Made by a program: the position numbers and the translations under genes
Notes under the pieces: model-generated
Databases searched by the model: none
Seen by the model: the letters and a program-made list of their open reading frames with translations, nothing else
Told to the model about the DNA's origin: nothing
Shown here: positions 39,329 through 48,977 of the stretch, piece by piece
Numbering within the stretch: position 1 is the stretch's first letter
Layout: each line of letters starts with the position of its first letter
NCBI GenBank assembly: GCA_965242725.1
Contig: CBDESZ010000012.1
Coordinates: forward strand, 32,001 to 96,000
Reading direction: 5' to 3'
Source of the DNA: Alkalispirochaeta sp.
GTDB taxonomy: Bacteria > Spirochaetota > Spirochaetia > DSM-27196 > Alkalispirochaetaceae
DNA: 64,000 nt

Positions 39329-39448
39329 GCGCGACGGGGATTGACCGAGAATTCCCAATCCAATAAGTTAAGACGGTCCGGTTGGTCGACAGAGGCGCTC
39401 GCCGCCTCGTTACCATTCGCCTCGCGAGAAGAGGCATAGCCGGTACAT

Positions 39449-39522
39449 GCCCCGGTAGCTCAGCAGGATAGAGCAACTGCCTCCTAAGCAGTAGGTCACC
39501 CGTTCGAATCGGGTCCGGGGTA
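39449..39522 (+). tRNA. tRNA-Arg (anticodon CCT)
   Basis: Cloverleaf GCCCCGG/CCGGGGT, D-arm GCTC/GAGC, anticodon arm ACTGC-CTCCTAA-GCAGT, T-arm ACCCG-TTCGAAT-CGGGT; no encoded CCA. Confidence 0.97.
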
Positions 39523-39523
39523 A
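39479..39523 (+). repeat. attL core (3' part of tRNA-Arg)
   Basis: gcctcctaagcagtaggtcacccgttcgaatcgggtccggggtaa. Confidence 0.95.
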
Positions 39524-39674
39524 TTTATAAACCATTTTAATATAACGATTTATTAACACGGTACTAAGCGCCTTCGGGCGTTTTTTTATTATCTGTTGCA
39601 GAAACGGTTGCAACTTTTTATTGTGACTATTAGACATTTATGTTATATTCAATATGAGAGGTTAAAAATTAAGG

Positions 39675-41017
39675 ATGAGAGGCGCAAAACTACCGTATCC
39701 GGAACCATATAAATCTGAAGCAACTGGGGGTAAATTTCATTTCATGTTCCGAGATCCCCGAACGGGAAAACGACGAAAAAAGTCTACGGGGAAGACGAGT
39801 AAAACCGAGGCAATCAAGTTCATCAAAGCCTACATTGATGAACTGTCACGGAATACTAACGAAGATGGAGAGAAGCCCTTCAGGGAGTACGCTGCATGTT
39901 TCTTTATCGACGGCGAGTGTCCACGGCAGCAGCGCATGAGAAACGCCCGGAAATCTTTCGGTGCTCGTCATATGCGGGATATGCGGCAAAATTTGGAAAG
40001 GGTCATTGGTCGCCCTGCCAATGGTAGAAAAAAAGCCCGCAAATCTTTACCCTTTGCCGATCTAAAACTGTCAATGATTACCCGTTCCGACATATATGAC
40101 CTGCAAGATAAGCTGTCCCGGTCTCCCGGTGGACGAAGCGGACAATTAGCTTTTCAAGCGGTAAAAACCGTACTAAGCGAGGCAACCGAACGCGGCGTTA
40201 TAGAACGCTCTCCGGCAGACGGAATCGGCGCGTATAAACGGCCTGAAGCGGGAAGCGGGGAGAAAGGCGAGGAGAAAAGACGCGCCGCTTTCAATTATGA
40301 GGAGTACTCATTCCTATGGCAAAATCGAAACACAATTGCAAAACCATCGGCCAATGGTATCGGATGGGGGCGTATAGTTGACGGTGCCGATGACGATCCC
40401 CGGCACGTCATGACGCTATCGCTTCTATTGGCTCTAGGCGTCCGTGTTTCTGAATTGCGCGCCTTACGATGGCGACATGTAAACCTTGAAACCGGAACGA
40501 TAGACATCGTGGAAGCATTCAAGGGCGGTAACGCGGGCGACGCTATAGGCTTGCCGAAATGGGGAAAGACCCGCCCCGGTCTCAAAATACCAGTACCATT
40601 GATAGGTGACCTTAAGACCTACAGGCAACATATGGAAACAAGAGACACCTCACTTGTTCGCCCTGACACTTTCATTATTTGCAATCCTGAAGGCGGCCCA
40701 GTCGGGGAAACTTTCGTACAGAAAACGTGGAAAACGATTAAGAAAAACACCGGTGATTCAATCGGCTGGACTGACCGATGGTTAACACCTCATTCCTGCC
40801 GACACACTTTGAACACACTTCTATTAATCAATGAAGCACCGCCGTTGCAGATTCAAACTTTTCTTGGATGGGAGAGCGCCGCCGGAAAAGCGCTAGCTGA
40901 AATGCAACGTGGTTATATGGTCATCTTGAAATGGCCGGAACGGCGAAAGTTGCGGAAGCAATTGCCGAAATACTGGAACTTTCAGAAGCGGAAAACGTAA
41001 TCACGATGACACGATAG
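39675..41017 (+). CDS. Tyrosine integrase (probable 2-nt frameshift near 40917)
   Basis: N-terminal arm-binding region; GVRVSE, LPKW, HSCRH, LGW, RGY; alternative frame continues YGHLEMAGTAKVAEAIAEIL to stop at 41017. Confidence 0.92.
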
Positions 41018-41055
41018 ATTTATAGCAAGTTGGCCCGTTTTTTGCTTCCATGTTG

Positions 41056-41084
41056 TTGACATTTGTTTTTATGTATGATAAATT
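41056..41084 (+). promoter_or_regulatory. sigma70 promoter upstream of excisionase
   Basis: TTGACA-N17-TAAATT. Confidence 0.55.
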
Positions 41085-41168
41085 AAATATTGTAACAAAT
41101 TTCTCAAATCAAACCGGTTAGTTCAGATATTGTTGAGGAAGGCTGAAGACCACCACAGAGGGGGTCGT

Positions 41169-41351
41169 ATGTCCAAACTCTACAACTACAATGAAGCCGC
41201 TGAATATCTCGGTATCAGTCCGTCCACACTTCGCAAATGGGTATGTAGCGGTAAAATCGCTTGCACCAAACTGGGCACCGGTCCCAAAGCTCCCGTCCGA
41301 TTCACTGAGGAACAACTTAAAGCGGTCTTGTCGGTTTATGCTGCTATTTAG
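41169..41351 (+). CDS. Excisionase / AlpA-like HTH DNA-binding protein
   Basis: LYNYNEAAEYLGISPSTLRKWVCSGKI...VRF; GAGGGGG RBS. Confidence 0.88.
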   Translation: MSKLYNYNEAAEYLGISPSTLRKWVCSGKIACTKLGTGPKAPVRFTEEQLKAVLSVYAAI

Positions 41352-41566
41352 CATAAGCTACCGATAAGAGAAAAATTTCTCCATATTGTATAATACATAA
41401 ATCGTCGAATTTACCGGCGTGCTAGTGACGGCGCAATGCTATTATTAGTGGTTTCTGTTTAATTTTTACGTGTATATGCCCTTGGTAAAGGTGTATCCAA
41501 ATGAATAAACAGACCTAATTAATAGCCTATCTGTACTAGCAATCTATTACCTATAGAGGCTAGTAA

Positions 41567-42188
41567 ATGTATCAATCAAATCAATCCACCAATCAACAAG
41601 TATTACCAATAGCAAAGGACACCTTTGAATCTATGGTAATCCCCGTTCCTTTCATCACTATTAGCAGACCATCATACTGGCATGATGACATGGATATAAC
41701 TCTTCCACAATATTCTATCCAAATCGAAACGAATGCTTTTCGGAAAAACCCGGATAGGTCAACAATCCACTATCACCGCCGTCTTTTCAGTTGAGCATCA
41801 CTCCCGCCACGGGATAGCAACTACGAATGAACACGTACATGCTTTGGTTACAATCGATTCCCCGGAATATTCCGACATCTTTTCGTTTACACTTTGGGAA
41901 CTGTTAGGCATGGACAAGAAGAAAGACCGTATCGATACCTTTCAAACAGACAACTATCCTTCAACTCGTAATGATTGGATTACTAACCGTCCCGTTACTT
42001 TTTCAATCGGTAACAGACAGATTAACTTCCCTCTCAAACCACAAATTTACAATCAACTAGATAACGATTTTCAATTAGCTAATCCATCAGACTATCAAGT
42101 AATCATGCACTATTCCGGCAAATCGGAAAGTCTGGAAAGGCGTTTCAACCTTGAACCTCTTTCATACTCCGGGTATTGGCAGGTATAA
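41567..42188 (+). CDS. Putative HUH rolling-circle replication initiator (frameshift in A-run ~41744-41748)
   Basis: Joined frames give motif I FITIS, motif II EHVHALV, motif III YSGK in canonical order. Confidence 0.55.
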
Positions 42189-42215
42189 TATGTTAGTTTT
42201 GTATCTGGTTTGGCT

Positions 42216-42845
42216 ATGAATGAAGCGCACGATAACTGGTTAAAATTCCTTAACCCGGAAGAACTCTATAAGAACTTTCTTCTATCATCTTTATTTATTA
42301 CTACGCATAACCTGTTAAAATCTTCGATAGTCGGAAGAATCCGATCTTTTTATAATTGCAGGTTTGACAGTACTGGTTGGCACACCGGAATTGACTACGA
42401 ACAAAAAGTATTGAGTCTCGACGACAAGAAAGACGTACTGCGTTCTTCCATAAATTGGTTGTTCGATATGCAAATCATCGATGAACTTGATAAGGAAACA
42501 ATTGAGAAGGCCAGACGTCATAGAAATGACTTAGCACACGAAATGCTAAAATATCTTTCTGATGTCAAACATGAAATCGACATCGAATTACTTCAATCGA
42601 TGCGTGACCTAATAGACAAGATTGAACGATGGTTCATCTTTGAAGTAGAAATACCCACGGAACCGGATATGACGGCGGAGGAGTTTAATTCTATAAATTG
42701 GGATGAAGTACGATCAATGACTATGCTTACACTCGATTACGTTCAATTAGCCATATTCGGAGATATTGAGACTACTTCCCGCATGTATGAACAATTGAAA
42801 GACACGTTAACGAAACGAAATACAAACGCTGAATCCACAGATTGA
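42216..42845 (+). CDS. HEPN-like cargo protein
   Basis: All-alpha character with RNDLAH (R-x4-H) motif. Confidence 0.55.
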   Translation: MNEAHDNWLKFLNPEELYKNFLLSSLFITTHNLLKSSIVGRIRSFYNCRFDSTGWHTGIDYEQKVLSLDDKKDVLRSSINWLFDMQIIDELDKETIEKARRHRNDLAHEMLKYLSDVKHEIDIELLQSMRDLIDKIERWFIFEVEIPTEPDMTAEEFNSINWDEVRSMTMLTLDYVQLAIFGDIETTSRMYEQLKDTLTKRNTNAESTD

Positions 42846-42885
42846 AATTGTCGTATTTCGGATACCCAGTTACCGGAATAATATC

Positions 42886-43002
42886 CTACTTCTTTTTCTT
42901 CTTCGGTTTGTCCGTCTCTGTAACTGTCGTTTTCGGGTGCTTTTTCGCAGTCCCTTTTTTAACGTACTGTCCAGTTATTGCGGATCGTTCTTTTTTCGCC
43001 AT
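42886..43002 (-). CDS. 38-aa highly basic peptide
   Basis: MAKKERSAITGQYVKKGTAKKHPKTTVTETDKPKKKKK*; GGGAGGG RBS. Confidence 0.65.
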   Translation of the reverse strand: MAKKERSAITGQYVKKGTAKKHPKTTVTETDKPKKKKK

Positions 43003-43185
43003 AAGTCTACCCTCCCATTGGATACTTAATGTCTGTATAGTACGCTAACAACCTGTATAGTTTTATGCAATAGACTACTAGAAAATATTTTTAAAAAAAA
43101 AACGATCACGTTATGAGTACTTTTCATTTCTGTATTGTAGCGAGGTCAAAAGAGATCCTTTTCCCTTTTCGTGTAGAATTCGGCA

Positions 43186-43527
43186 ATGAATCACACCTTC
43201 ATTCAAAACGCCCTTAAAGAGTACATAGAAAACACTCCCGCCCTGACCTACACCTTCACCAACCTGAAAACACGGAGCTTCAAAGCCAGAAATCCCCGCA
43301 CAAGACTAACCGGTGAGATCCGGCTAACCGGGAACGATCTTGACCGCTTTTTCCGCAAGGGACAAATGTTTAAGAGATCCGGCTTCATTGTTTTCATCAC
43401 TTCGATAGGAAAACAGGGAAATACTTTCGTTGTCAAATACAGATGCGACCTACCCGCGATATCGGAGAGCGCTATACCTTCACCGGCAGACACCTATACA
43501 TACCGTGTTCCGTTATTTGAGAGATAG
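43186..43527 (+). CDS. Hypothetical protein (satellite)
   Basis: 113-aa ORF, tightly spaced with next two. Confidence 0.55.
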   Translation: MNHTFIQNALKEYIENTPALTYTFTNLKTRSFKARNPRTRLTGEIRLTGNDLDRFFRKGQMFKRSGFIVFITSIGKQGNTFVVKYRCDLPAISESAIPSPADTYTYRVPLFER

Positions 43528-43534
43528 ATAATCT

Positions 43535-43735
43535 ATGGAGAATTACACAATCCAAAAAGGCCATAATGGGAAGCATAGAATCATCCTGCACGTTCCCATA
43601 GAAGAAACGAAAGACCGGGTACAACAATTACTTAATACCATGAGAGACGAATTCAAGGATTATCGAATTCAAATGTACAGTACCGTAGTAATAGACCGGG
43701 AATTCATCACAAATATCGACGTATGGAATAATTGA
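43535..43735 (+). CDS. Hypothetical protein (satellite)
   Basis: 66-aa ORF starting 7 nt after previous stop. Confidence 0.5.
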   Translation: MENYTIQKGHNGKHRIILHVPIEETKDRVQQLLNTMRDEFKDYRIQMYSTVVIDREFITNIDVWNN

Positions 43736-43765
43736 GTAATTCCGTAAACTTAAAAGGAAAAGACA

Positions 43766-43990
43766 ATGGAAGAATTACGAATTCAGAACCTTAAAGGAAC
43801 ACTATCGGGAGCCGCAAAAAGAACCGTACACGATGAACAAAAGATACCTATCAGGGAGCTGGAAACAGTCACGGTAGGGCGTGCAATCATCGTGCTACAT
43901 GAAGACAAAGCGGTAGACGGTTTTATTGTTATTGACGGGGAATTAAATCCATTGGTAGCAGGCAAGAAACCGGAAGATTACTTAGATTGA
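43766..43990 (+). CDS. Hypothetical protein (satellite)
   Basis: AAGGA RBS, 74-aa ORF. Confidence 0.55.
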   Translation: MEELRIQNLKGTLSGAAKRTVHDEQKIPIRELETVTVGRAIIVLHEDKAVDGFIVIDGELNPLVAGKKPEDYLD

Positions 43991-44244
43991 ATCAATGCAG
44001 AAAAGCCCCTTTCCGCTAGCCTAGTCCCTCGCAACTCTGACCGACCGCTACCGAGGGTATTTTATCGGTCCCCGACCGACAAACTACCCTAATGTATCAC
44101 AATTGTATATATATACAGTAATTATGTATAAATATGCAATATTAAATTGAACACGATTCCGGGACAACACCATACCCATATTGTACACCACACTGCTCCC
44201 TCCCGCTACCCCTCAAATTCTCCCCTGAATTCTTCCATATTTAT

Positions 44245-44272
44245 ATACTCGATAAGACTAATTATGTTATAT
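44245..44272. other. dif-like recombination site overlapping promoter of second recombinase
   Basis: ATACTCGATAA-GACTAA-TTATGTTATAT; 11-6-11 layout, right arm 10/11 identical to XerD arm TTATGTTAAAT. Confidence 0.45.
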
Positions 44273-44282
44273 ATGGTATAAT

Positions 44283-45116
44283 ATGAGTATGGAAAACAAA
44301 GAGATCACGACGACTAAAAACCATTTTGACCTTGAGACCATCCCGGCAATGTATCGGAGTGAAGCCCGTAAATTTATACAATATGTTGAGGAACACGGAT
44401 TCACGGTGGAGACCTATCAAGACTTTATAGAGAGTCTCCGGGATGACTACAAAGCCCGGACGGTCAACAAGCATATTGCCGCCTGCCGGTCTGTAATCCG
44501 CTCCATGTTCGACGATCCGAGTATAACGGACCTTCAGAAGTATCGGCTACAAAAAGCGCTTGAAACCGTCTCATACGTCAAACTTGCTCCCAGTGAAAAA
44601 CAGGTGACGGGTACCCTCTCCCCTGAAGAAGTGGAAACACTTGTGACTAGATCCCCTGCCCGTACTGCCCTTATCATTCGATTTCTGGCCGTAACAGGGT
44701 GCCGGGTATCGGAATTGACGGGAATTCGCCTCAATAAATGCAAGACGGATGGTCAGAAAGCGGTGATTCAGGTGATAGGCAAAGGAAACAAAGCAAGAAC
44801 AATCCGAATACACCTGAATCTCTATACTAAGATCCGCAAAGCGTTCCCCGGAGAGATCTTTCTTTTTGAATCGAAAAGCGGAAACGCCCTTAATACCCGA
44901 AATATTTACAAGGAAATTGTAAGACTTTCCCTGAAGCATTTGGAGGGAAAGAGGGTTACCCCTCATGACTTCCGGCACTATTTCGCCACTCAAAAAGGCG
45001 TTGAGACGGGCAATTGGAAAGGCGTATCTGAGTATTTAGGCCACGCCTCGACACAAACCACGATGGATATGTATGTTCATACGTCACTGTCAGACGCCGA
45101 TTTAGGCATAGCCTGA
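44283..45116 (+). CDS. Second tyrosine recombinase (Xer-like, no arm-binding domain)
   Basis: TGCRVSE, GKGNKAR, PHDFRHYFAT, LGHAS, MYVH; true start may be 44289 (leaderless after TGnTATAAT). Confidence 0.92.
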   Translation: MSMENKEITTTKNHFDLETIPAMYRSEARKFIQYVEEHGFTVETYQDFIESLRDDYKARTVNKHIAACRSVIRSMFDDPSITDLQKYRLQKALETVSYVKLAPSEKQVTGTLSPEEVETLVTRSPARTALIIRFLAVTGCRVSELTGIRLNKCKTDGQKAVIQVIGKGNKARTIRIHLNLYTKIRKAFPGEIFLFESKSGNALNTRNIYKEIVRLSLKHLEGKRVTPHDFRHYFATQKGVETGNWKGVSEYLGHASTQTTMDMYVHTSLSDADLGIA

Positions 45117-45495
45117 ATCTATACCCCCTCAGAATCCCCTCAGAACGTCACAGCGCCGTTCTAAGCCCGTCTAATGGTTTAGTGGTACTTCATAGTCATT
45201 TAGTGCCCGGAAACGGGCTTACAAGCTAAACTGAGCGGTGTATCTTTCGGACAAGGTTACTCGATGCGCTGAATTCGCTTTCCTAGCTAGGCCGCAAAAA
45301 ATCTTGTAATAAATTTTTTAGAATTTTTTACCGATAAGTAATTTTTTATCTAATATGGTAAAATTCACTTACTCTTTGGAAAGCGGTGGCGGGATGACCA
45401 CACGGAATAGGTCAAGGGGTTAAGTGCCATTAGTTTCCGCCTGTTCTGGAATATGCCCGCCACCAAATTCTTACAACGGAACGGACACGGAGAAT

Positions 45496-45924
45496 ATGGG
45501 CAGACCTAAAAGCGAATTTCTACAATCCAACGCCAGTACTCAAATTTCGATCAGTCGGGTAACCGCTTCCCATGAAGACGATACCGATGACGATATCTTT
45601 GACACTCCCATATCCCCTGAAGAGGAACAACGCGCCCTTGAGACCGTCCGCAAAAGAGATTACCGCCTACGGAAGAGAATATCCCAGCCCCAGAAAAATG
45701 AAAGCACCTTGAATGATTCCATGCTGGCCGTCTTCCAGCGTCACGCAATAGAGCTTGCAAACACTGAAGTAATGGCGTCAAAGGATATCCGTACCCTGAA
45801 CGGTCTCTATGATTCTATTTCCCGTGAATCCCGATTGTGGGAGGAGTTATATCAGCAACGAACGGAAATTAAGGAAATCGTGCAGCAACTCCGGGAGCTG
45901 GAAAAAAGCGTAAAGAGGATCTAA
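45496..45924 (+). CDS. Hypothetical protein, possible small-terminase-like / DNA-binding
   Basis: GGAG RBS; N-terminal MGRPK; helical/coiled-coil C-terminus; upstream of head genes. Confidence 0.4.
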   Translation: MGRPKSEFLQSNASTQISISRVTASHEDDTDDDIFDTPISPEEEQRALETVRKRDYRLRKRISQPQKNESTLNDSMLAVFQRHAIELANTEVMASKDIRTLNGLYDSISRESRLWEELYQQRTEIKEIVQQLRELEKSVKRI

Positions 45925-45928
45925 CAAC

Positions 45929-46216
45929 ATGGCTAGTACGCAATCAATAAAAAATAGAATCGAGAAACTAACAGAGGCGGACAAATCATGGTCCGATAGC
46001 GTGGAATTCCGCCCGCAATCAATGGGCCTACGGGTATGGCTCCTCCATCCTGACGGGTCTCGAGACCGTATCGTCATGAACGTGCCCGGAGATCCGCCCA
46101 GCGTAGAAAGCAGACATACAGGGAAGCGTCTCCCTATCGAACAATGGGACAGACTTTCAACGCTAGCAAAATCACAATGGATTAAGACGGGAACATACAG
46201 GCAGGACCGGAAATAA
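45929..46216 (+). CDS. Hypothetical protein (satellite head module)
   Basis: 95-aa ORF starting 4 nt after previous stop. Confidence 0.55.
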   Translation: MASTQSIKNRIEKLTEADKSWSDSVEFRPQSMGLRVWLLHPDGSRDRIVMNVPGDPPSVESRHTGKRLPIEQWDRLSTLAKSQWIKTGTYRQDRK

Positions 46217-46295
46217 ATAAAGGAAACAACCGCCCTGAGAGGCGGAAACAAAGCGGCAGAACCGCAAATCTAAACAGACCCCGGAGGGTACATAC

Positions 46296-46802
46296 ATGGA
46301 CACGAACGAAATCAGAGATTTCTTGAAAAACGATCCGGACGGTCAAGCGCTTTTTGCAGAGCTTACCGACGGATTGAAGGGAAATAGGGACCGGATTTTG
46401 ACCGAAAAAAAGAGTCTACAGGAACAGCTTAATGACCTTTCCGGTCAATTGGAAACCATTACGGACCAATTGAACAGGGAACGTCAACGATCAAATGAAC
46501 TGACAGCCCAGAAGGCAATAAACAGCGAATTTGACCGCTACAATGTGCCCCGTGATGTCCGCCCTATCCTTGAGAAACACTTTTCAGGTCTGGAAGGCCT
46601 TCAGATTGACGACAGCGGGACTGTCAACGTTGGTGAGACTGCCCTTTCTGAATACATGGATTCTTTTTTCATGTCGGAAGCCGGGAAGAGATTCACCACG
46701 GTACGAAGTGCGGGGTCTGGAAGCTCCGGTTCATACGGCACAACCCCAAATTCTGAAGAACAGAATTTCAGGGAAGCGCTCTCAAAATCACTTAGAAATT
46801 AA
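46296..46802 (+). CDS. Putative capsid scaffolding protein
   Basis: GGAGGG RBS; coiled coil, Gly/Ser-rich SAGSGSSG near C-terminus; directly upstream of capsid gene. Confidence 0.7.
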   Translation: MDTNEIRDFLKNDPDGQALFAELTDGLKGNRDRILTEKKSLQEQLNDLSGQLETITDQLNRERQRSNELTAQKAINSEFDRYNVPRDVRPILEKHFSGLEGLQIDDSGTVNVGETALSEYMDSFFMSEAGKRFTTVRSAGSGSSGSYGTTPNSEEQNFREALSKSLRN

Positions 46803-46813
46803 AGGATATTTAT

Positions 46814-47656
46814 ATGGCATTATCAGCAGCAATACCAACGATTGTCGGTGAGGCAATCCTTGAATCACTCCGGGAAAATCTCGTTTATGGAAGTCTTTTC
46901 AATGAAGACTACATCGGAGACGTGAAACCGGGCAACGCGGTCAAGATCCCCAGTATCGGGTCTGTCACAATCGGAAACTATACGGCGTACACCGACATGG
47001 ACGATGAAGCGGTTTCTGACAGTTCCCAGACTCTTAGTATCGATCAACAAAAGTATTTTTCCATCGTTATGGACGACGTAGACGCGGCAATGTCAAAGCC
47101 TCGCGTCATGGCGGCTTATGCGCGTGAAGCAAGTCACCAAATGCAGGCGACGATTGACAGCTATTTAGCCGGTGTACTCGCGGCAGGCGGTACGATTACG
47201 ACCGACCTGGGAGACGACACCACGCCGCTTGAGATCAACAGCGCAAATGTCGGAAGTACTCTCCGCCTGATTGCGCGTAAGCTCGATGACGCAAAGGTAC
47301 CCCGCGCCGGTCGTTTCGTGGTCGTTCCGCCTTGGATGGTAGAGGATCTTGTGTCCGCAAATATCACGGATAGCACCAACAACGTGGACGCTATCAGTAA
47401 CGCGATGGTTGCCCGTTATGGCGGTTTTGACGTGCTCATGAGTCATCAGGTGCCGAATACCGAAAGCGCAAAGTATAAGATTGTGGCCGGTACTAATCTC
47501 AGTGCTACTATGGCGCTGGCAATCGATCAGACTGAACTGATCCGGCACCCTACCCAGTTTGCCGACAAGTTGCGTGGTCTCGCGGTCTATGGCTCAAAGG
47601 TAACACGGGCGGCAGCTCTCGCGGTTGCTACCTGTAACGAGGCTGCGGAAGCGTAG
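46814..47656 (+). CDS. Major capsid protein (HK97 fold, P22-coat/N4-gp56-like)
   Basis: IPTIVGEAILESL, YIGDVKPGNAVKIPSIG, LSIDQQKYFSIVMDDVD, LDDAKVPRAGRFVVVPP, FADKLRGLAVYGSKV. Confidence 0.85.
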   Translation: MALSAAIPTIVGEAILESLRENLVYGSLFNEDYIGDVKPGNAVKIPSIGSVTIGNYTAYTDMDDEAVSDSSQTLSIDQQKYFSIVMDDVDAAMSKPRVMAAYAREASHQMQATIDSYLAGVLAAGGTITTDLGDDTTPLEINSANVGSTLRLIARKLDDAKVPRAGRFVVVPPWMVEDLVSANITDSTNNVDAISNAMVARYGGFDVLMSHQVPNTESAKYKIVAGTNLSATMALAIDQTELIRHPTQFADKLRGLAVYGSKVTRAAALAVATCNEAAEA

Positions 47657-47707
47657 TTAAACTAGTTCCCATTACCGCCCCCTGACCGGGAGCGGGAACT
47701 CCGTTCT

Positions 47708-47740
47708 ACCGCCCAGTGTCCAAGCGCTGGGCGGTTTTTT
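47708..47740 (+). terminator. Rho-independent terminator after capsid gene
   Basis: ACCGCCCAGTG-loop-CGCTGGGCGGT followed by T-run. Confidence 0.8.
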
Positions 47741-47928
47741 GTAACTGAATTCTGCGACTACTTGCAACCATGGTTGCAAAATGGTTGCAACTTCCCCGTA
47801 CTAATAAAAAAACAAAGAAGAACATAGAAGAACATAGATATTCAATAATTATCTACTATGTAACGGTTTATATCCTAACAATAAACAGATAGGAACATTG
47901 CGGAAAATATCGGAAAACGCCGATAAAC

Positions 47929-47973
47929 GCCTCCTAAGCAGTAGGTCACCCGTTCGAATCGGGTCCGGGGTAA
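47929..47973 (+). repeat. attR core (duplicate of tRNA-Arg 3' part)
   Basis: Identical to 39479-39523. Confidence 0.95.
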
Positions 47974-48019
47974 AGCGAACGCTCCGCGTTCGCTGACTCG
48001 AGAGAGAATGACTGACGTC

Positions 48020-48145
48020 TACTGAAAGCGCGACAGGCGAATCGAAAGATTCGCCGATAGCGCATTCGCGTTTTCCGACTCGTTGGGAAACGCTTACCTA
48101 TACTGAACGCGCGACAGGCGAAAGCGAAGCTTTTGCCGATAGCGC
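48020..48145. repeat. Two ~44-bp structured direct repeats
   Basis: tactgaa.gcgcgacaggcgaa...gccgatagcgc at 48020-48063 and 48101-48145. Confidence 0.7.
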
Positions 48146-48286: not shown

Positions 48287-48766
48287 TCACCGCAGCTTGT
48301 GGAGTTCCTCAACCGCGGAGCGGGGGGAGAGAACGGGAACGGGGGAGATGCCGGTATAGTCGTCGGTATTGTCCGTAATAATTGCGCTCACGTGATGACA
48401 TCCCGCCGCGGCTACGACGTTCGCATCGTGTATCCTCTTGCCCTTCAGAGAGTGAGTCTCCACCAGAGCGATGAGTTCATCATGTATCTCTGCACTCTCC
48501 GGCAGAAGATGGGTCCGCGTACGGAACGCCCGAATGTTCCGTACGGCGTCACTCGTATCGAGACCGAGACCGTCTGCCTCCACCGGTCTGGTTGCCACCA
48601 CAAGATACTCCCGCAGGATCTGTCCGATCGTCACGAGGTGTACTCCCGCCCGGGCCGGGAGTCGAAACAGTTCGGTACACAGGGCGTGACTATTGCGAGA
48701 CCGATCCTTGGCGGCGAGCAGGACATTGGGATCGAGAAGGAGCGTATTACCGCGCGTCATTGTCAT
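48287..48766 (-). CDS. vapC: PIN-domain toxin (VapC)
   Basis: LLLDPNVL, QILREY, IHDANVVA, IITDN.DD acidic PIN residues. Confidence 0.88.
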   Translation of the reverse strand: MTMTRGNTLLLDPNVLLAAKDRSRNSHALCTELFRLPARAGVHLVTIGQILREYLVVATRPVEADGLGLDTSDAVRNIRAFRTRTHLLPESAEIHDELIALVETHSLKGKRIHDANVVAAAGCHHVSAIITDNTDDYTGISPVPVLSPRSAVEELHKLR

Positions 48767-48977
48767 ATATCTCCTGGCGAGACCACGGATCGTTCCGGCG
48801 GGTGCGCGTCATGACAAGAAGAAGGGGCTCGTCCATGTCGGGGGTCGGTGCATACCGCGATGCCTCTTCCAGAATTGCCTTAAACTCCCCTTGCACCGAA
48901 CGATGATGAGCCCGGGCAAGTCGCTGCAGGTCTTCCAACACTCGTTCATCGACATCACGTATGTGTAGCGATTTCAT
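48747..48977 (-). CDS. FitA-like ribbon-helix-helix antitoxin
   Basis: LHIRDVDERVLEDLQRLARAHHRSVQGE; overlaps PIN gene. Confidence 0.85.
   Translation of the reverse strand: MKSLHIRDVDERVLEDLQRLARAHHRSVQGEFKAILEEASRYAPTPDMDEPLLLVMTRTRRNDPWSRQEIYDNDAR

Follow-up and report, generated by a model that had tools for sequence, protein, structure and literature searches.

The definition of phage-inducible chromosomal islands (PICIs) used by SatelliteFinder covers capsid-encoding variants without a recognised primase, including one in which a small terminase (TerS) precedes the capsid (PMC10085698), and islands that combine an integrase with a capsid are catalogued as candidate PICIs of Mycobacterium (PMC10654092). 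Gut mini-genomes of ~8.75 kb, the twilight HK97 mini-genomes, carry an integrase, an excisionase, a Rep, a scaffold and a capsid and are without terminase, portal and tail; for HK97 elements below 11.6 kb, their description leaves undecided whether they are satellites or package single-stranded DNA (ssDNA) driven by Rep (Aguilar et al. 2026, PMC13669383). Here we describe an element of the same gene logic, integrated at a tRNA-Arg gene of Alkalispirochaeta sp. within a stretch of 64,000 nucleotides (the window; GenBank assembly GCA_965242725.1, contig CBDESZ010000012.1, positions 32,001 to 96,000). An earlier, sequence-only reading of this DNA held that its gene combination fits none of PICIs, P4 and cf-PICIs, which the three reports above do not support: the gene set is known already, and what is new is a distinct spirochaete lineage linked to its hosts. 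Observed directly are the att repeat, the genes present, the fold of the capsid and a group of small related elements, together with the failure to detect any gene for packaging or tails. The element is real and probably intact, a variant of the PICI-like capsid-encoding satellites, and we think it rather likely that it makes a small head of its own and takes the portal, terminase and tail of a helper siphophage.

Like the twilight mini-genomes, the element is below 11.6 kb, has an HK97 capsid and a scaffold as its sole structural genes, is without portal, terminase and tail, and resembles them in size, integrase, Rep and, for some of them, excisionase (PMC13669383). The main twilight group comes from the human gut and has encapsulin-profile capsids, whereas the spirochaete lineage gives P22_CoatProtein and Phage_capsid profiles, with an encapsulin Pfam match in 0/36 members, and thus falls outside the encapsulin-enriched group; it is also integrated with att sites and has a plasmid-like form, the twilight set being compared here by its description. 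The string 'Spirochaet' has 0 matches in the text and four supplements of that paper. PICIs of type B var03 (PMC10085698) and the phiRv1/phiRv2-like islands of Mycobacterium (PMC10654092) share with the element a tRNA-targeting tyrosine integrase, a helix-turn-helix (HTH)/Xis gene, a capsid gene preceded by small genes, a length of ~9 kb and the lack of portal, tail and holin. Unlike them, it is without primase-replicase, recognised TerS or Stl/AlpA, has a free scaffold gene, and encodes a capsid related to those of siphophages with SPP1-type portals. The accessible part of PMC10085698 makes no mention of spirochaete hosts.

Measured against PICIs generally, the element has an integrase at a specific att site and a capsid gene, and is without tail, holin, portal or head-tail genes. 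Pfam and PHROGs searches found no primase or helicase, an HUH-like gene standing in place of the primase-replicase module, and the sole candidate for a PICI regulator (AlpA, MerR, Stl) is the HTH_17 excisionase-like protein (MerR_1 22.5 against a 21.6-bit cut-off). The element would work like a PICI, but because there is no primase module and no demonstrated TerS, it is not classed here as a canonical PICI or a capsid-forming PICI (cf-PICI). The latter (EcCIEDL933; 10.1101/2022.09.08.507074) likewise encode their own capsid protein, but also protease, portal, head-tail connectors, HNH, TerS and the large terminase (TerL), none of which was detected here. Nor did the open reading frames (ORFs) of the element match P4-like genes (Psu, Delta, Sid, Ash, alpha primase-helicase) in Pfam or PHROGs. 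PICI-like tycheposons are alike in tRNA integration, swappable integrase and replication modules and a major capsid protein or TerS, and differ in their cyanobacterial hosts and other integrase clade, a scaffold going unmentioned in the accessible text (10.1101/2020.12.28.424599). The EPIPs of Mycolicibacterium (PMC12822802) and the VEIMEs (PMC9618062) are also small and helper-dependent; EPIPs list a scaffold and major capsid but add TerS, head-tail adaptors and a tape measure protein, and VEIMEs encode no major capsid protein.

Boundaries and integrity of the element

The perfect 45-bp att duplication and the one-strand gene order of the sequence-only reading both stand (Table 1). The two copies of the repeat, at a spacing of 8,450, match the 3' portion of tRNA-Arg(CCT), the only tRNA in the window, with no further copy anywhere in the genome; 12/12 called genes lie on the + strand, and the GC content of the element is 0.448 against 0.577 for the genome. 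Four of the five window matches to GGTTGCAA (genome rate 0.02 per kb) fall at the element's two ends. Such GTTGCAA clusters at both ends are what integrase arm sites would give, a function they may have. The terminator placed by the earlier reading just before attR is present as a hairpin (47708-47735, 12-bp stem and T-run) 51 nt past the capsid stop and 193 nt short of attR; such sites are not enriched, however, and because a scan gave 8 against 10.1 in shuffled sequences the hairpin is informative by its position alone.

Table 1. Features of the element and its insertion site (window coordinates)
Feature	Position	Strand	Evidence
tRNA-Arg(CCT), integration target	39448..39523	+	ARAGORN
attL core, 45 nt	39479..39523	+	100% direct repeat
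GTTGCA(A) repeat pair, candidate integrase arm site	39595..39614	.	motif also clustered at 47762-47792
Tyrosine integrase, 446 aa	39675..41017	+	PF00589 E 1e-15; R-K-H-R-W-Y motifs
Excisionase-like HTH protein, 60 aa	41169..41351	+	PF12728 E 4e-11; TIGR01764 above cut-off
HUH-endonuclease-like protein, 206 aa, likely rolling-circle initiator	41567..42188	+	one extra base in window
HEPN-like cargo, 209 aa, RNDLAH motif	42216..42845	+	weak Pfam HEPN E 0.025-0.06
Three small ORFs (113, 66, 74 aa), no family	43186..43990	+	ORF calls
Xer-like tyrosine recombinase, 277 aa	44283..45116	+	PF00589 E 3e-22
142-aa helical protein at the family's DUF8136 position	45496..45924	+	small-terminase candidate by position only
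95-aa protein, no family	45929..46216	+	small ORF at same place in relatives
Head scaffolding protein, 168 aa	46296..46802	+	phrog_206 E 4e-5
HK97-fold major capsid protein, 280 aa	46814..47656	+	phrog_267 E 5e-54
Terminator-like hairpin 3' of capsid gene	47708..47745	+	also 3' of capsid stop in 7/7 relatives folded
attR core, 45 nt	47929..47973	+	100% direct repeat

As assembled, two genes of the element are broken, a point absent from the sequence-only reading. The integrase ORF stops at 41000 owing to two extra bases, which shift the frame directly past the catalytic Tyr, and the coding sequence of the HUH-like protein runs over two frames. Contigs from three short-read runs (all of a single sample, which may be the source sample, at 2-6x depth) were without the single bases at 40910, 40913 and 43093 in 3/3 runs and without that at 41703 in both runs covering it (2/2); a further run, X4, with almost none of the element covered, was not used as evidence. 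Removal of the extra bases gives ORFs of 446 aa (integrase) and 206 aa (HUH-like), and two natural HUH homologues (203 and 200 aa) align across the frame junction. Because the read-derived contigs lack the extra bases, both frame breaks are probably assembly errors and both genes intact. Position 43093, in a T/A run, is a fourth one-base difference from the read contigs, and similar errors may be present in other parts of the assembly.

Other observations concern the insertion site and its flank. An integrase 30% related to that of the element adjoins the same tRNA-Arg in another genome (G013). Two further genomes, G006 and G008, show synteny upstream of the tRNA and no match downstream within 1.5 kb; in G006 (C59:15044-18544), the 3' end of tRNA-Arg recurs downstream of the tRNA in four copies of 24 nt, which suggests repeated integrations at the site. 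Just outside attR are two copies of a ~81-nt repeat with internal hairpins (48012-48145), for which blastn found no further genome copy, followed by a PIN-domain toxin and FitA-like antitoxin pair (48287-48977, - strand). Low GC persists past attR to about 50 kb and perhaps marks an older island at the same tRNA.

A capsid lineage of small elements

The scaffold and capsid that the sequence-only reading had named were recovered by PHROGs profiles (Table 1). The capsid model (pLDDT 79) has the phage Che8 capsid as its best Foldseek match (E 5e-16), with encapsulins at ranks 4-8, and the scaffold aligns with the scaffolds of relatives (hhalign 95%), which in turn align with a phage scaffold cluster (99.6%). 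A single-protein scan of viral sequences gave no match, and the capsid profile matched in 6/401 class genomes and 3/99 order genomes, the element's own genome counted.

Three of the relatives are bounded elements. One, of 6,533 bp at a tRNA-Asp with a 50-nt repeat (G011), carries an integrase, an excisionase and an HTH_36-type initiator; a second, of 7,994 bp at a tRNA-Leu with a 67-nt repeat (85%; G133), has an initiator like that of G011, along with a KAP NTPase for which PADLOC gave a match to PDC-S20. The third, G315:C150, is a contig of 6,999 nt which, from its 127-nt terminal repeat, is read as a 6,872-bp circle; it encodes a Prim-Pol, ParA and a Xer-like recombinase, and has no second copy in its genome. 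All four, the window's element included, end in the same block (two small ORFs, then scaffold, capsid and hairpin), while integrases and replicons are swapped: the window's replicon is HUH-like, G011 and G133 have the HTH_36 type, and G315 combines Prim-Pol with ParA. In DNA alignments of the window element with the other three, only the capsid gene aligned. In addition, an initiator-scaffold-capsid block lies at a contig end (G110), and G332 holds a decayed 5,910-bp relative at a tmRNA (L092:9004-14941) with a 28-nt repeat, a capsid fragment, an excisionase, insertion sequences and lipoprotein-like cargo. Metagenome loci carry capsid, Xer and ParA (L101), tRNA-Lys, integrase, excisionase and capsid without scaffold (L103), or capsid and methyltransferase (L100), and further relatives lie on short contigs. 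Capsid homologues are thus not confined to full-length prophages, and the close ones sit in small bounded elements, which bears out the earlier view of a compact satellite rather than a decayed prophage.

Phage capsids are more distant. The nearest are about 43% identical over the full length (L104) and 56% over a C-terminal fragment (L095), and in viral contigs identity is 30-40% for the best 80 of 109 relatives. The L095 locus (1-2450) holds that capsid and a decoration gene, then an opposite-strand integrase, and may be a satellite retaining a decoration gene. The closest annotated relatives are siphophage capsids, most of the top ones from 35-52 kb phages, and close homologues occur in records named Alkalispirochaeta and Marispirochaeta. 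A capsid tree (quick search, midpoint root) was built from 71 of 171 distinct rows, leaving out non-satellite rows at least 70% identical to a kept row, most fragments below 200 aa, and L080, L105, L106, P0009, P0028 and P0058. It places 10 satellite-context capsids on one side of a branch and 32 phage-context rows on the other (SH-aLRT 94); for three of the 10 satellite labels, the contig is no longer than about 2 kb. Comparison with six relatives gave dN of 0.21-0.36 with dS saturated; on these estimates, the capsids are under strong purifying selection.

These data bear on what the capsid gene is for. Descent from a full prophage by loss of most late genes would fit the two frameshifts in the window and the decay of the G332 relative, but is largely refuted: the frameshifts are missing from read-derived contigs, the same block occurs at three tRNAs and on a circle, and the capsids stand apart from phage capsids in the tree and are under strong purifying selection. 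An encapsulin-like compartment carried as cargo, the 'scaffold' being its cargo protein, would agree with the encapsulins at fold-search ranks 4-8. We regard this as highly improbable, given that Pfam profiles over the 36 family members return P22_CoatProtein (15), Phage_capsid_2 (15) and Phage_capsid_4 (14) and no encapsulin, that the protein encoded upstream shares homology with phage scaffolds and no enzyme cargo is adjacent, and that the closest annotated relatives belong to siphophages. A satellite capsid protein might instead co-assemble with or poison the helper capsid, as Ccm does in SaPIbov5; lone capsid homologues act so in some PICIs (PMC6092414, 10.1101/2022.09.08.507074), and the element is without a decoration or head-completion gene. 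This is unlikely here, since a dedicated scaffold precedes the capsid in 8/9 other satellite-context tree loci (L103 being without) and the identity to the nearest phage capsids is low, which would tell against co-assembly.

Replication, recombination and cargo modules

The integrase, excisionase and second recombinase of the sequence-only reading all score above Pfam cut-offs. Its HUH reading holds moderately, by motifs and fold. The motifs ITIS, HVH and YxxK, which stand in HUH order, are kept in 3/3 sequences (the window and two homologues). A model of one homologue (P0089; pLDDT 74, three-row alignment) has SIRV1 ORF119, an HUH Rep, as its top match (Z 7.4, rmsd 3.4, 112 aligned); viral Rep nucleases come next, at Z 5.8 and 5.0, interspersed with ferredoxin-like folds that are unrelated. 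With motif I, HUH and YxxK on a ferredoxin-like fold, support for membership of the superfamily is moderate, and the 206-aa protein is likely an HUH endonuclease; its position among the genes suggests an initiator role. It matched no Pfam or NCBIfam family above cut-off. Relatives were found neither by word search nor in viral contigs, plasmids or 400 other class genomes, the two homologues coming from a full scan; a further candidate relative, P0091, was a repeat artefact. No replication origin emerged among the folded intergenic regions.

The Xer-like recombinase is 33% identical to that of L101, where it lies beside capsid and ParA, and 32% to the only recombinase of the circular G315 element; because it is closest to these, it resembles a plasmid-type resolvase, and it is likely a dimer resolvase. 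The HEPN-like protein gave no PADLOC match and is possibly an abortive-infection RNase, and the three small ORFs had no match in Pfam, PHROGs, NCBIfam, PADLOC or the fetched loci.

An HUH-like gene and a capsid in one element, on a single strand and without packaging genes, would also be expected of an HK97 mini-virus that needs neither helper nor portal and in which the HUH protein feeds circular ssDNA into the shell, a mode of packaging proposed for the twilight genomes (PMC13669383). In its host-linked, integrated form, the shell would be T=3 or smaller and the protein would couple rolling-circle synthesis to packaging. We consider this very unlikely, in either wording. In sister elements whose capsids are 40-73% identical, the replicons are of the HTH_36 or Prim-Pol type, genes for entry or lysis were not recognised, and because the HUH protein occurs in 1/401 class genomes (that of the window), it is not linked to the capsid. 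Neither the HUH gene nor the second recombinase defines the family, both being modules open to exchange, and exchangeable replicons argue against Rep-coupled ssDNA packaging. One capsid lineage is thus joined to three unrelated replicons, and the satellite reading is therefore favoured.

Packaging, helper and head size

No terminase large subunit, portal, tail or head-completion gene was detected among the element ORFs, and profiles for TerL, four portals, MuF, decoration and two tail clusters matched in 0/13 close-clade regions and 3/3 phage controls. In the relatives, the first small gene before the scaffold encodes a 60-105-aa helical protein (DUF8136 in 9/24 matches), which is encoded in further PICI-like islands across the phylum as well. 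Three of these, from other classes and without this capsid, carry a DUF8136-like gene (L133:5594-9921, L134:7786-10300 and L135:2600-7300), preceded in L133 by an unassigned 311-aa ORF. The DUF8136 Atlas model matches a Terminase_2 cluster at TM 0.72 over 73 residues, under the tool's naming bar. A four-copy prediction, a copy number outside the complex tool's calibration, scored 0.47 against 0.00 for the best control, with 97% contact agreement and pLDDT of at least 74; the score mark was reached by 20/30 solved pairs and 1/23 single chains. These predictions agree with a small-terminase-like oligomer, and DUF8136 is a candidate small-terminase family.

By profile, the 142-aa protein at this position (Atlas best 0.78) matches neither the DUF8136 family nor phage TerS clusters, and the small proteins matched neither helper-type TerS clusters nor, by sequence search, the PDB. 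Its homology to DUF8136 was rejected, a forced alignment (A3) being suggestive and independent profiles giving no match; a self-match in the DUF8136 search is circular and lends no support. A proposed family for the 95-aa position ('protein B') was dropped, since its leave-one-out scores fell within shuffles (10-73/200).

On contigs of sufficient length, distant capsids lie either in modules of TerL, SPP1-type portal, MuF, scaffold, capsid, decoration and tail or in ~9.7-kb elements. Therefore the helper would probably be a siphophage with an SPP1-type portal, as in the phages with related capsids. A contig with MuF, scaffold, capsid and decoration exists in the window's own order (G448). The G315 terminase was rejected as a sign of a helper, belonging to a separate island with a different head module. 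That island (L156:2018-14188, G315:C117) carries an integrase, an excisionase, a TerS-like ORF, Terminase_3 and defence-like cargo, followed by ORFs resembling a portal, a protease and a capsid gene; no tail gene was seen across 20 kb, and all labels except TerL and integrase were assigned by eye. The ~9.7-kb elements (L050 and L056, with terminal repeats of 107 and 77 nt; also L012, L021, L028, L094, L110 and L113) are cf-PICI-like and of a different head type. They encode a TerS-like ORF, TerL, SPP1-type portal, MuF, scaffold, a related capsid, decoration-like and small ORFs and a primase or ATPase, and are without the tape-measure cluster; the L094 record is labelled Dehalococcoidia.

Scaling from T=4/T=7 genome ratios gives a T=3/T=7 ratio of 0.18-0.22, or 7-9 kb for a 40-kb helper. 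Because family lengths are 6.5-8.5 kb, they suggest a head of T=3 or smaller, or else concatemer packaging. A published prediction for a T=3 genome is 11.8 kb (8.1-17.1), and tailed-phage heads of T=3 or smaller had not yet been imaged (PMC7762592). As a satellite, the element would be excised by Int and Xis upon helper infection as a circle of 8,450 bp. The HUH-like protein would start rolling-circle replication, with multimers resolved by the Xer-like enzyme. A head of scaffold and capsid protein, T=3 or a loosely filled T=4, would assemble around the helper portal, the small helical protein encoded upstream of the scaffold would steer the helper large terminase onto element DNA, and helper tails would complete the particle. 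The HEPN-like gene may contribute anti-phage defence.

Several observations weigh against this scheme. The window's genome (91.8% complete) gave no PF03237 or PF04466 match to indicate a helper, PF04466 was missing in 4/5 host genomes tested, and among 653 phage proteins compared with the element's own genome the capsid itself was the only match. Read depth over the element equals that of the flanks and no circle junction is listed in the read contigs, both weak tests at 2-6x, and 13 genus loci, compared to a distance of 1.5 kb from the tRNA, gave no empty syntenic att site. No separate repressor gene was found in the element, and six of the 13 close-clade regions are shorter than 3.2 kb. The 142-aa protein scores 0.9 bits against the DUF8136 profile, below many shuffles, and because it fails that profile no small terminase is identified in the window copy. 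One of three DUF8136 complex runs scored 0.21, and the four-copy setting exceeds calibration. The HUH fold score stays below Z 8, and Foldseek returned no match for that fold at E 0.001 or better.

A literature search, with subscription journals mostly outside its scope, found no report of spirochaete phage satellites or of DUF8136; the lineage and its host group were likewise not found in the literature searched, and the supplements of the two bioRxiv preprints may list further hosts. The family offers both integrated and circular members for the packaging question posed by portal-less HK97 elements below 11.6 kb, and three of its proteins (P0009, P0028 and P0102) are recorded under named spirochaetes, which places laboratory study within reach. 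The satellite reading would extend phage satellites to the spirochaetes.

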